Notes: generated by a model from the letters alone, not told the origin. DNA of 57,730 nt from Oscillospiraceae bacterium (GCA_031253545.1 JAIRWH010000074.1:1-57730), one strand, 5' to 3'; positions 40,851 through 49,597 are shown, counted from the first letter of the stretch. Translations and numbers: made by a program.

Positions 40851-40952
40851 CCCCCGCGGCAGGTTGCGGGGCTTCGCCCCCCCCGAAGGGGGAGCAAGGA
40901 GAATACCTGCGTCGGTTTCGTCGGTTTCTAAAAGTAACGGTCGGCAAAGGCG

Positions 40953-41762
40953 GTGGGTTCCATGCTTCCGGAGATACTATACCCGTTTATCAGCATCGGC
41001 GCGCTCGCGCTCTGCTTCGGCGCGCTGCTGGGCTTTTCGGCCAAGAAGTTCGCCGTGGTGCCAAACGAAAAGGCCGAGCGTATCAAGGGCATTTTGCCCG
41101 GCGCCAACTGCGCCGCCTGCGGCTACGCCGGCTGCGCCGCGTTTGCCCTTGCCGTGGCCGAAGAGCCCGGCATATACACCTACACGACCTGCCCCGTGGG
41201 CGGCCCGGACACAGCCGCCGCCATAGCGCGGGTGCTGGGGGTGGAGGCCGCCGCCGCGAACCGCTGCGCCGCCTTCATCAAGTGCAACGGCAAAGACGAA
41301 AACGTGAAGCGCAACTACATCTACGACGGCCCGAAGAGCTGCATCGCCGCCTCCCAGCTTGCCACGGGCGGCAACAAGTCCTGCGCGTACAGCTGCATAG
41401 GCCTCGCGAGCTGCAAAAACGCCTGTCCCTTCGATGCCATACGCATTGTAGACAGCATCGCCGTGGTAAACCCCAAAAAGTGCATGGCCTGCGGCAAATG
41501 CGTGGCCGTGTGCCCCAAAAAGCTCATCGAGATTGTGCCGAACAAAAACCGCGTGCGGGTGCTCTGCAATTCCGGCGACACCAGCAAATTAGTCCGCGCG
41601 AACTGCCGCGCCGGCTGCATCGGTTGCACACTCTGCCAAAAGGCGTGCGAGGCGGGGGCCATCACCGTGAAGGACAACATCGCGCATATAGACTACGAAA
41701 AATGCACCCTCTGCAATAAATGCGCGCAGAAGTGCCCCGCGAAGGCCATCATCGGCGCGTGA
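40953..41762 (+). CDS. rnfB: Rnf complex subunit B (polyferredoxin)
   Basis: The protein has an N-terminal TM and the cluster motif LPGANCAACGYAGC. Several CxxCxxCxxxCP ferredoxin motifs follow (CMACGKCVAVCP, CIGCTLCQKACE, CTLCNKCAQKCP). Confidence 0.9.
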   Translation: MGSMLPEILYPFISIGALALCFGALLGFSAKKFAVVPNEKAERIKGILPGANCAACGYAGCAAFALAVAEEPGIYTYTTCPVGGPDTAAAIARVLGVEAAAANRCAAFIKCNGKDENVKRNYIYDGPKSCIAASQLATGGNKSCAYSCIGLASCKNACPFDAIRIVDSIAVVNPKKCMACGKCVAVCPKKLIEIVPNKNRVRVLCNSGDTSKLVRANCRAGCIGCTLCQKACEAGAITVKDNIAHIDYEKCTLCNKCAQKCPAKAIIGA

Positions 41763-42164: not shown

Positions 42165-42226
42165 GGTTAGTTGTTAGTTGTCAGTTGTTAGGGGTTAGGA
42201 GACGGGGGTTGCGGGGGTTTTGCGGG
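42165..42226 (+). repeat. Heptanucleotide array, copy A, with a G-run tail
   Basis: The array reads GGTTAGT TGTTAGT TGTCAGT TGTTAGG GGTTAGG AGACGGG GGTTGCG GGGGTTT TGCGGG. It ends exactly at the stop codon (42227-42229) of the minus-strand lipoprotein gene. The G-runs are GGGG(42191-94), GGGGG(42204-08), GGGGG(42213-17) and GGG(42224-26). Confidence 0.85.
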
Positions 42227-43296
42227 TTATGGCGTTATCCACATGGCGGGGCGAACGCCGGCGCTGCCGCCGCCGTAGCCGCCGCCGCCGTAGAAGAAGC
42301 CGTCGCCGCTGACGTTGCCGTCGTCGTAGACGATGGCGGCGTAGTAGCTGTCGAAGCCGGGGGACCGCAGCCACCAGTAGGAAGTATTCCCATTTGCATT
42401 GTATGCTATTCGGGCTGTAACATTGGACAGATAGAGATTCACCTCGTCTATGCTGAGCAGAAACACTTTGTCGGTCGTGTCGTTGCCACCGGGTGTGCCG
42501 TAATCTGGGTTGTCACCATTCACGACCCTTGTGTCCGCTATCCTTGACCTATCGCCCGCGTCGAAGCCGTTGTAGAAGTCGCCGTTGAGGTATTGCCTGG
42601 TCGTGCTGTTCTCCCAAGTAATCTCTCCCCCCGGTTCGTGGTAAGGCCTGTTTTCAAGAACGCCCATGCTCAGCAGGAGGACGCTGTTGCCCGCCCTGTC
42701 GAGGACTGCCCAGTTGTAGCCTCCGAACTGCATTTGTTCGTAGCCCATTTCGGACAATGCGACTGCGGTTATCGCTTCGTTGCCCTTGAACCCAAAGCCT
42801 TTGAATGTGACCGCGAGGTTTGGTGTGCCGCTAAATGCGTAGCTACCGATTGAGGTCACGCCGTCGGGCAAAGTCACACTCGTGAGTCCTTTGCAATCGA
42901 TGAACACTTCATGGCCGATTGAGGTCACGCCGTCTGGGATATACACATACGCAATCCCTGCGCCCGCGAACGCCCCATTTCCAATCGCCTTTACGGTTTC
43001 GCCCTCTATCTTCTCGGGTATCCGCACCTTGATTGTCGTTCCGATGTACTCGTTAATCACGATCCCGCCGAGCGCGGCGTCGTATCCGTACTTGAAGTCG
43101 CTCGCTTGCGTTTCAGGCAGGTCGTCCGGGGAAGGGCTTCTGCTGCGCGAAGGCGAGGGGGAAGCGTCGGAGCAAGCGGAAAACAGCAAAGCGAACACAA
43201 GCGCGAAGGCGAGGAAAGCGGCGCGGGGCTTTCTCAGCAGGCTATTTTCGCGGGCGCGGTGTGTGTGTGTGTGTGTGTGTGGCGGGTGGCTTTCAT
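42227..43296 (-). CDS. Surface lipoprotein with BspA-type leucine-rich repeats and a DUF6273-like domain. Its 5' end is out of frame at a (GT)11 tract (phase-OFF as sequenced)
   Basis: The lipobox is LLFSAC, followed by the linker SPSPSRSRSPSPDD. The LRR units are VKAIGNGAFAGAG.../VTSIGHEVFIDCKGLTSVTLPDGVTSIGSYAF. The DUF6273-like hallmarks are YNWAVLDR...VFLLSIDEV...YWWLRSPG...GVRPAMWI. The only RBS-preceded start (43296) is separated from the ORF by a frameshift inside the dinucleotide repeat. Confidence 0.75.
43259..43280. repeat. Perfect (GT)11 / (AC)11 dinucleotide microsatellite
   Basis: This is a run of 22 nt, gtgtgtgtgtgtgtgtgtgtgt. It lies between the ATG (43296) and the signal-peptide hydrophobic core of the lipoprotein gene. 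Confidence 0.95.
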
Positions 43297-43344
43297 TTTA
43301 CAAGCACCTCTTTTATTTATTATTGCGGGTATTCCTAAAAGGTG

Positions 43345-43373
43345 AGTATAACCCGGAACGGCGAAAGTCGCAA
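43345..43373 (-). promoter_or_regulatory. Sigma-A type promoter of the lipoprotein gene
   Basis: On the minus strand, TTGCGA (43368-43373), a 17-nt spacer and TATACT (43345-43350). The -35 element abuts the first heptad of array B. Confidence 0.55.
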
Positions 43374-43491
43374 GGTTAGTTGTCAGTGGTTAGTGGTTAG
43401 TGGTTAGGAGACGGGGTGCGCGCCTGCGGCGCGTTAGTGGTTAGTGGTTAGGGGACGGGGGTTAGGGGACTTAGTGGTTAGGGGACGGGGG
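43374..43491 (+). repeat. Heptanucleotide array, copy B (two blocks split by a short GC hairpin)
   Basis: Block 1 (43374-43416) reads GGTTAGT TGTCAGT GGTTAGT GGTTAGT GGTTAGG AGACGGG G. A hairpin, CGCGCC-TGC-GGCGCG, lies at 43419-43433. Block 2 (43434-43491) reads TTAGTGG TTAGTGG TTAGGGG ACGGGGG TTAGGGG AC TTAGTGG TTAGGGG ACGGGGG. Five G4-G5 runs lie between 43451 and 43491. Confidence 0.9.
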
Positions 43492-43527
43492 TGAGTAAGG
43501 TTGCCGTGACCCGTGCCGCTTGCGCGG

Positions 43528-48586: not shown

Positions 48587-49597
48587 TTACGGCGGTTGTT
48601 CGCCCGTTTCGAAGGCGGATACATTCGGCAGTATTTTCTCAAACGCGGAGCCGACCACCGCGCGCGCGCGCGCAAAGTCCGCTTCGGGCACACCGTCGTT
48701 GACGCACACCGTCAAATACTTTTGCCGCGCGATACCCCGCGCGGCGGCTTCGGCATCTTGCGGCGAGCTTATCCAGTACGCCTTGCCGCGCCTGTAACGC
48801 GCGGGGCAAAACGCGCCCTTGCAGAGCTGATTATAGCGCACGAGCCAGATGCTCACGTCGCCCTCGCCGCGAAACTTATTTTGGCAGGTTTTGCGGATAA
48901 TGTCGCCGTTTTCGCTCCAAGCCTCGGCAAACGCGCTCTTGAGGTACGGCAACGGTTGGTGGGTGTCTATGAACCCCGTGAAGTCTTGCCAGGGCAGCAG
49001 GGCGAACGTGCGGTAGAGCTGCGCGCCGTAGCGCAACCTAAACCATTTGCCCCTGTGGGCTTTGAGCGTTTCGCGCTTTGAGTGGCGGGCGTTTACGGCC
49101 CTGATGTTGTTTGCCGCAATGAACGAAAAGCCGTCTTTCGGCGCCACGGCGTTTAGTATGGCCACATCGCGCGGCAGGCCATTTACGAAGAAGTCGGAGG
49201 GCTTGGCGCGGCGAGTGAGGAACATATCGTCGTTGAAGTAGACAAACTGCTCGGCAAGGCCGGGCAGGCGGTGTAAATGCCATTCTATGGGGTGGGAACT
49301 GAATGTGGGGAGGTATTCGCCCGGCATAAAGTCCGAGTGCCGCGCTACGCGCAGGCGCGGGTGGGAAAGGTTTAGCCGGGGCGGCAAGTGCCCGTGCGTG
49401 ACCAAATACACGTTTCGCGCCCAAGGCGCGAAAGATTCTATGCCCCGGAAGAGGTAGCGCAGCAACCCCCAGTCGCGGTAACGGAGCGGCCTGTCGTCGG
49501 CGTCTGCGGCAAGGGGGGCGTACCGCGCCTTTTCGGCGAGCCACGCCTTGTCGCCGCCGTCTACCCATGTGATGACGATGTCTATATCGCCGCTCAT
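48587..49597 (-). CDS. Stealth-family (CR1-CR4) hexose-1-phosphoryltransferase-like protein
   Basis: CR1 is DIDIVITWVDGGDKAW. CR2 is LRYRDWGLLRYLFRGIESFAPWARNVYLVTHGHLPPRLN...LPTFSSHPIEWHLHRLPGLAEQFVYFNDDMFL. Confidence 0.75.
   Translation of the reverse strand: MSGDIDIVITWVDGGDKAWLAEKARYAPLAADADDRPLRYRDWGLLRYLFRGIESFAPWARNVYLVTHGHLPPRLNLSHPRLRVARHSDFMPGEYLPTFSSHPIEWHLHRLPGLAEQFVYFNDDMFLTRRAKPSDFFVNGLPRDVAILNAVAPKDGFSFIAANNIRAVNARHSKRETLKAHRGKWFRLRYGAQLYRTFALLPWQDFTGFIDTHQPLPYLKSAFAEAWSENGDIIRKTCQNKFRGEGDVSIWLVRYNQLCKGAFCPARYRRGKAYWISSPQDAEAAARGIARQKYLTVCVNDGVPEADFARARAVVGSAFEKILPNVSAFETGEQPP

Follow-up and report, generated by a model that had tools for sequence, protein, structure and literature searches.

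The question raised by the locus described here is whether a dinucleotide microsatellite, placed after the start codon of a surface-protein gene and before its signal peptide, switches that gene on and off by gaining and losing repeat units. The locus lies on the minus strand of a 57,730-nucleotide stretch of DNA from an uncultured Oscillospiraceae bacterium (GCA_031253545.1, JAIRWH010000074.1:1-57730), which is called the window below and in which all positions are counted from the first letter. It consists of an ATG at 43296, an (AC)11 tract and a 323-codon open reading frame (ORF) for a BspA-type leucine-rich-repeat (LRR) protein with a DUF6273 domain, and in the assembled sequence the ATG is out of frame with this ORF. 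A preliminary description had proposed a slipped-strand phase-variation switch. The geometry of the simple sequence repeat (SSR), the implausibility of the annotated GTG start and the intact gene body all uphold that proposal, and a slipped-strand translational switch captured in its OFF state is the most likely reading of the locus, one that we regard as fairly probable; phase variation at this very locus we infer from its design and by analogy with other loci.

Repeat tract and start signals

A scan with Tandem Repeats Finder (TRF) and regular expressions located the repeat as a perfect (AC)11 tract of 22 nt at 43259–43280 on the minus strand (the plus strand shows (GT)11 at 43259–43281, and the minus strand reads C(AC)11 over 43281–43259), which bears out the earlier placement of a GT microsatellite between start codon and signal peptide. 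The minus-strand sequence runs GAGGTG-cttgtaaa-ATG AAA GCC ACC CGC C(AC)11 CGC GCC CGC GAA AAT AGC CTG CTG AGA AAG, in which the tract begins 16 nt past ATG 43296 (nt 17 of the ATG frame), occupies codons 6–13 and codes for (His-Thr)n whichever frame is read. It is the sole non-CG dinucleotide run of more than 5 units in the window, where 168 dinucleotide tracts of 3 units, 20 of 4 units, one of 5 units and one (CG)7 were counted beside the single tract of 11 units. Under a first-order Markov model the window should contain 5.6e-5 tracts of at least 11 units when all types are counted, and about 1e-9 when AC/GT is taken alone, and (AC)11 is therefore no chance feature. It is longer than the 5 dinucleotide units from which tracts varied in reads in another organism (PMC5476646, see below), and its unit, which is not a multiple of three, lies within the translated 5′ part of a gene. 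An inverted repeat that takes in the tract (I1; 28 nt, 79% complementary) was regarded as chance.

The proposed true start, ATG at 43294–43296 on the minus strand, is the sole start codon with a ribosome-binding site. A Shine–Dalgarno (SD) sequence, GAGGTG, stands 8 nt 5′ of it at 43305–43310 on the same strand, and the anti-SD duplex energy is −9.4 kcal/mol at ATG 43296 and at least 0 at CTG 43240, CTG 43237 and GTG 43198, the value of +1.9 kcal/mol for GTG 43198 meaning that this codon has no SD site. Farther upstream a consensus scan found a promoter-like site at 43345–43373 (minus strand; TTGCGA as −35, a 17-nt spacer and TATACT as −10; 9/12 matches), which is one of two consensus matches within the 1.7-kb region scanned and may be taken as a putative promoter; both the ribosome-binding site and this hexamer pair had already been pointed out upstream of the ATG, and both are present.

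The frame of the long ORF is open from 43297, and its first canonical start (ATG/GTG/TTG) comes only at GTG 43198, from which the JGI/IMG and NCBI records both give a 323-residue product (42227–43198, minus strand), the body of the lipoprotein. ATG 43296 and GTG 43198 are 98 nt apart, so that the loss of one unit or the gain of two puts the ATG in frame, exactly as had been claimed and as frame arithmetic and simulation agree. When tract lengths of 6–17 units were simulated, those of 7, 10, 13 and 16 units were ON, with products of 353–359 residues, and all others were OFF, terminating 5 or 7 codons past the tract. In the assembled 11-unit allele, which is one unit away from the nearest ON state, the ATG frame reads MKATRHTHTHTHTAPAKIAC, that is 20 codons followed by TGA at 43236–43234; the 18 codons and TAG that had been ascribed to 11 units in the preliminary description belong instead to the simulated 12-unit allele, with the TAG at 43244–43242. 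These two OFF-frame stops (43234–43244, minus strand) border on or overlap with the pair of in-frame codons CTG CTG at 43240–43235. Off-frames in the 21 long ORFs of the window run for a median of 27 codons before they meet a stop, and both off-frames are closed within 7 codons at just 3% of positions, which makes their early closure here unusual for such GC-rich DNA.

Signal peptide and gene product

The signal-peptide core, RKPRAAFLAFALVFALLFSAC, is encoded at 43172–43234 on the minus strand and comprises basic residues, a hydrophobic region and the lipobox LFSA-C, the Cys codon of which lies at 43174–43172. The segment AAFLAFALVFAL-LFSA-C fits the PROSITE-like lipobox core in both its hydrophobic region and its lipobox, and most of the signal-peptide core sits upstream of the annotated GTG 43198. 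All 13 homologues checked begin with M-K-(K/R)-hydrophobic-L(A/T/V)AC and have their lipobox Cys at position 20–26. In alignment A1, which contains eight homologues, the lipobox Cys is invariant and is matched with C41 of the 10-unit form, the hydrophobic regions align with K22–A40, mostly upstream of GTG 43198, and the M-K of all eight aligns with M1-K2. Because the M-K, the hydrophobic region and the Cys of the homologues align there, the residues upstream of GTG 43198 are coding, and it follows from the family comparison that the protein of the window has an insertion of about 20 residues, ATR(HT)nRARENSLLR, in its n-region, with the AC tract as its core; judged from these sequences, the insertion is lineage-specific. 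The n-region of the 10-unit ON form thus comprises 24 residues with Cys at position 41, the other ON forms having Cys at 39–43. The earlier designation of a textbook lipoprotein signal peptide holds for the hydrophobic core and the canonical lipobox, but not for this n-region, the Cys position or the lipoprotein pattern G+LPP, on which the ON forms fail because at least 20 residues stand before the last K/R.

Pfam places an LRR_5 domain of the BspA type at about 42815–42988 (minus strand; 49.6 bits versus a cut-off of 27.7) and DUF6273 at about 42233–42688 (minus strand; 105 bits versus a cut-off of 23.5), the latter covering profile positions 2–171 of 172. The WLRSP and RPA.W motifs are invariant across the family alignment, and the protein belongs by Pfam thresholds and conserved motifs to the family combining BspA-type LRR_5 with DUF6273, its best homologues being just 42–52% identical by BLASTP or alignment. 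The AlphaFold (AF2) model has a pLDDT (predicted local distance difference test) of 82, and Foldseek matched it to TpLRR of Treponema pallidum (6mlx), to the gut-bacterial LRR proteins 4oju, 4fs7 and 4gt6 (titled cell surface protein) and, over 253 alignment columns, to the IgA peptidase of Thomasclavelia ramosa (9qa6). The last match hints that the LRR and DUF6273 module recurs in an enzyme that targets host immunoglobulin, the catalytic part of which is missing here. With a lipobox, a Ser/Pro linker, the BspA-type LRR domain and DUF6273, the gene product is predicted to be a surface-anchored, adhesin-like lipoprotein. As shown by the full-length domains and the confident model, the 323-codon body is intact, and the AC tract is therefore the only lesion.

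Related tracts in other genomes

Analogous loci were sought with the pattern ATGAAA-N(0-30)-(AC)8 in one genome per GTDB species, a scan that returned at least 120 loci and the counts of which may be biased. Among the 120 matches listed, to which all of the following scan counts refer, 87 are titled Clostridia, Clostridium, Eubacteriales, Lachnospiraceae or Oscillospiraceae by their depositors, and several genomes hold 2–5 loci each. These matches contain 123 tracts, of which 26 run directly into an ORF of at least 100 codons; a strongly hydrophobic N-terminus is found in 22 of these 26 ORFs, and 11 of the 26 are ON and 15 OFF.

The closest analogue among the matches listed is L018 (= L123; 5261–6700), from an Oscillospiraceae metagenome-assembled genome (MAG) of a termite gut, in which MKNDKKNL-(AC)16-EGKVPIIRKVITLILASVIMITATAVGA... 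is followed by an internalin-like LRR protein of 428 codons, dockerin-like at its C-terminus. This allele is OFF and one unit from ON, which would be reached at 15 or 18 units; a scan for polymorphism at L018 recovered no contig other than its own. In three MAGs, one each of Pseudomonadales, Saprospiraceae and Alphaproteobacteria (L017, L004 and L114), ON alleles encode (His-Thr)n within the n-region of the signal peptide, and since these three exist, intact ON alleles can bear such n-regions. A search with the protein of another ON allele (L099; BspA-type LRR_5, low GC, labelled Clostridia) led to a large family, whose members either contain 2–6 pairs of HT or TH or have an internal Met as their annotated start.

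Variation in tract length is seen directly at one orthologous locus, a BspA-type LRR_5 gene of a low-GC gut species labelled Clostridia (L124–L133; shared neighbours, with pheS downstream), the DNA of which was taken from independent human-gut assemblies. Seven of the places shown (L124–L128, L130 and L133) carry (AC)10 and are OFF, the tract lying at about 1054–1073 in L124, whereas L129 is OFF with (AC)7, L132 is ON with (AC)11 and L131 is ON with (AC)5TC(AC)11, 17 units in all. As these alleles differ in length, AC tracts at this gene position vary in Clostridia, and do so in the same protein class. Four more pairs of loci have near-identical 240-nt flanks and differing unit numbers. The OFF alleles of L124–L133 are deposited as a 619-residue product with an internal Met start, and ATGAAA.. 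and GTGAAAGCC, a pair of starts that overlap but differ in frame, may render two of the three length classes translatable at this locus.

A further group among the matches listed comprises about 70 loci of low-GC (24–33%) gut MAGs labelled Clostridia or Clostridium, from rabbit, Hadza, Brazilian and other human samples, which share a leader: an SD sequence, ATGAAA.., ..GAAAGCCTTGAGGCTGT and then (AC)8-36, coding for MKK..ESLEAV(HT)n (e.g. L088:3312-3700, L019, L031 and L118). The genomes with this leader have up to five such loci each, and the tract lengths differ despite near-identical flanks. We found no publications on shared (AC)n leaders of low-GC Clostridia, and Rfam gave no match at the analogous leaders and only a tRNA within the window. 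In 51 of the low-GC loci (e.g. L088:3312-3520) a hairpin followed by a T-run, mostly of −12 to −25 kcal/mol, lies about 25–150 nt past the tract and precedes an SD sequence and the gene for a protein anchored by 'KGITLIALV..LLILAG'; an assignment of the 'KGITLIALV' N-termini to pilins was dropped, the NCBIfam matches being insignificant. Only one of the three frames enters the hairpin in 46 of these 51 loci, the others stopping within a few codons, and the present alleles, which are related and not independent, divide into 14 that extend to the hairpin and 37 that terminate before it. The layout suggests, as far as sequence can, a phase-variable, ribosome-dependent attenuator.

It is conceivable, and we put it forward tentatively as a view with less than an even chance, that the locus of the window is one instance of a largely unrecognised system of post-start (AC)n switches on surface-protein genes, notably those of BspA-type LRR proteins, in uncultured gut Clostridia of termite, rabbit and human, together with the leader-ORF attenuator of the low-GC group.

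The switch and its alternatives

In the proposed mechanism, translation of alleles with 7, 10, 13 or 16 units would start at ATG 43296 and continue through the signal peptide to the end of the 323-codon body, whereas the assembled 11-unit allele would yield a 20-residue peptide and leave the body without a start of its own. Slipped-strand mispairing during replication would gain or lose AC units and thereby move the frame, the unit being 2 nt. The bacterial population would then be a mix of expressers and non-expressers of the surface lipoprotein, which may serve as bet-hedging against phage, host immunity or changes of niche.

Several observations weigh against such a switch. The OFF state of the captured allele is equally how a dead gene would look, and the ON forms depart from the lipoprotein position rule (Cys at 15–35, PROSITE) as well as from G+LPP. 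The locus is known from a single assembly of a species sampled once; a search of JGI metagenome contigs with the exact flanks and a variable gap returned no tract-length variants, neither 5.8 billion protein clusters nor the JGI metagenome contigs contained a second strain or close orthologue, and the protein of the window is on record from its own contig only. The closest LRR_5/DUF6273 homologues (42–52% identity), two Oscillospiraceae MAG loci among them, have plain SD-ATGAAA starts and no SSR, so that they give no sign of a conserved switch. For the adjacent GH94 phosphorylase no homologue exceeded 78% identity, its top matches with a source name being Oscillospiraceae or Clostridiales MAGs, one of them from a termite-gut project, and a search for an orthologue by synteny found unrelated genes at the position of the LRR gene in the two nearest GH94 loci. 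The polymorphism that backs the switch comes entirely from other lineages and other genes.

The alternative that survives best is a non-adaptive frameshift, in which the tract would be a neutral or accidental expansion, with no selected switching, and the 11-unit allele would be a pseudogene fixed not long ago or else an in-frame gene miscalled in the consensus or the assembly. The OFF allele is the only one seen, on one metagenome-derived contig, no orthologue carries the tract, and the 43-nt direct repeats around the gene (described below), together with its absence beside GH94 in the nearest relatives, suggest a dispensable accessory cassette. However, the 323-codon body is undamaged and its domains match over their full length, the tract is perfect and uninterrupted, early stops in both OFF frames have an empirical probability of 0.03, and the layout recurs on surface-protein genes of other Clostridia, where it is polymorphic; an 11-unit dinucleotide tract, moreover, slips whether 'designed' or not. 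We therefore consider a non-adaptive frameshift unlikely.

Initiation at one of the two CTG codons (43240 or 43237) would give a 22–23-residue signal peptide, MLRKPRAAFLAFALVFALLFSAC, and would make the ATG-(AC)n segment an upstream ORF; as its stop lies 1–4 nt from the CTGs, termination–reinitiation would be allowed, and tract length would tune expression and not fully switch it. CTG is a very weak start in bacteria, and neither codon is preceded by an SD sequence, the M-K encoded at the ATG aligns with the M-K of the homologues, and ON alleles with long His-Thr n-regions are known at other loci. These points make a CTG start improbable, even though both OFF-frame stops abut the CTG pair and the hypothetical CTG-initiated forms satisfy both lipoprotein patterns, being the only forms to satisfy the Cys position rule, with Cys at 22–23 as in the homologues.

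Recoding, by which the 11-unit allele would be expressed with its DNA unchanged, either because the ribosome slips by +2 or −1 at the CACACA run or because RNA polymerase slips, is more doubtful still. A dinucleotide repeat does permit perfect tRNA re-pairing after a 2-nt shift, and the shift needed is exactly +2/−1, but neither a downstream structure nor an internal SD nor any other stimulatory element was seen, such slippage is known to be efficient mainly at homopolymer or heptanucleotide sites, and DNA-level polymorphism accounts for the analogous loci.

The public annotation itself, with GTG 43198 as the start and no lipoprotein export, has next to no credibility: both public annotations use this codon, the first canonical start in the ORF, but the resulting form has eight residues before the Cys and no n-region and fails every lipoprotein test, and upstream of the codon lie 14 others (LLRKPRAAFLAFAL) whose products, a basic patch followed by a hydrophobic stretch, match the signal peptides of the homologues in the alignment, so that it was rejected as the true start on SD energy, alignment A1 and the lipoprotein pattern tests, in agreement with the earlier statement that it provides no functional export signal.

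Comparison with known systems

The proposed switch shares with the contingency loci of Neisseria, Haemophilus and Campylobacter a hypermutable SSR in or before a gene for a surface structure and the principle of stochastic, reversible ON/OFF expression. Those loci have mostly homopolymers, tetranucleotides and pentanucleotides, not an AC dinucleotide within the signal peptide of a lipoprotein. The precedent drawn from these three genera in the preliminary description is thus apt for the general principle but imprecise, the closest cases being oipA of Helicobacter pylori (PMC10564699) and the BspA-like genes of 'Ca. Mycoplasma girerdii' (PMC5476646).

In 'Ca. M. girerdii' the BspA-like genes contain dinucleotide repeats, CA among them, whose length variants were seen at the level of reads and whose consensus is mostly OFF, and dinucleotide tracts of at least 5 units showed variation in the reads (PMC5476646). 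The likeness extends to the BspA/TpLRR-type LRR surface protein, the ON/OFF logic by frameshift, the CA/AC dinucleotide, with CA(10) in the homologous ORF of its second strain, and a dominant allele that is often OFF in a metagenome-derived genome (PMC5476646). In contrast, variants were counted there in reads, whereas here there is one assembled allele; that organism is a Mollicute with many such genes, whereas the window is from a 59% GC Oscillospiraceae with one locus visible; and here the tract lies between the start codon and a lipoprotein signal peptide, with DUF6273 also present (PMC5476646). The oipA gene of H. pylori has CT repeats in the region coding for its signal peptide, babA and sabA being regulated by slippage as well (PMC10564699), and it resembles our locus in having a dinucleotide tract in the 5′ signal-peptide region at which slippage sets a surface protein ON or OFF. 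It differs in that its product is an outer-membrane protein of a Gram-negative bacterium and its unit is CT, as against a Gram-positive-type lipoprotein and AC here, and in that it has been validated across hundreds of strains, whereas the present switch is a proposal from sequence (PMC10564699).

Nearer in taxonomy, the low-GC gut Clostridia described above share with the window the class label Clostridia, the AC unit, LRR_5 proteins among the targets and a tract a few codons past ATGAAA and before an N-terminal hydrophobic anchor, and they show both ON and OFF alleles between samples. Their conserved leader MKK..ESLEAV is, however, without similarity to the leader of the window, their anchor 'KGITLIALV..LLILAG' has no lipobox, their GC content is 24–33% as against 59%, and many of their tracts lie in a separate short ORF followed by the hairpin and T-run.

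Selection generally acts against long mono- and dinucleotide SSRs, presumably for their high mutability, and enrichment of SSRs at the N-terminus has been read as a signature of phase variation (PMC3315296). No description of an SSR switch in Oscillospiraceae or other Clostridia was found in the literature searched, and in a 2025 review Clostridia appear just for the invertible elements of Clostridioides difficile. The earlier remark that such designs are rarely described in Clostridia accordingly fits the literature searched, but the design itself is common in the genomes of uncultured gut Clostridia. The mechanism itself is classical, and the locus would add a new case to the SSR slippage switches.

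Other features of the window

Two 43-nt direct repeats (family D2; 88% identity between copies) enclose the entire LRR gene plus its promoter. The upstream copy, at 43374–43416, consists of a heptamer array and GGAGACGGGG and adjoins the −35 hexamer on its upstream side, and the downstream copy, at 42165–42207, lies 20 nt past the stop codon. Arrays of the heptamers CTAACCA/CTGACAA with CCCCGTC(T/C)CC are also found at 43418–43495 and at 546–587, and through them each of the six frames acquires a TAA, or a TAG on the opposite strand. There are 16 heptamer matches in the window versus 1.9 expected, and none in the other 133 loci examined. The arrays may mark a cassette boundary, act as an insulator or form a G-rich structure.

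The third array closely precedes the AT-rich promoter region of a surface-protein gene at 694. This gene (694–1416) and the next (1442–2185) form a tandem pair on the plus strand coding for secreted proteins with N-terminal signal peptides and Pro/Thr-rich stalks, the C-termini of which show 'TGDN', a hydrophobic stretch and a basic tail resembling a sorting signal; both are probably surface proteins with an anchor in the cell wall or the membrane.

The other simple repeats of the window are a (CG)7 run at 48659–48673, inside overlapping ORFs on both strands and close to the 3′ end of ORF 48587–49597 on the minus strand, and a C8 run at 40877–40884, about 70 nt upstream of an Fe–S (RnfB-like) ORF at 40953; neither has the 5′-coding position of a switch.

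Implications

Phase variation in gut Firmicutes is mostly known through invertible promoters, for example those of C. difficile. If this locus and its analogues do switch, repeat slippage would make adhesin-like surface proteins differ from cell to cell in uncultured Oscillospiraceae and other gut Clostridia, through a mechanism hidden by standard annotation, as both public annotations, starting at GTG 43198, miss the signal peptide of the gene in the window. The reading of MAG gene catalogues, pseudogene counts and surface-protein repertoires would be affected, and candidate phage-receptor or host-interaction proteins under fluctuating selection would be indicated. Because the mechanism itself is classical, the gain from the single locus is modest; of possibly greater importance is the wider (AC)n pattern across uncultured gut Clostridia.

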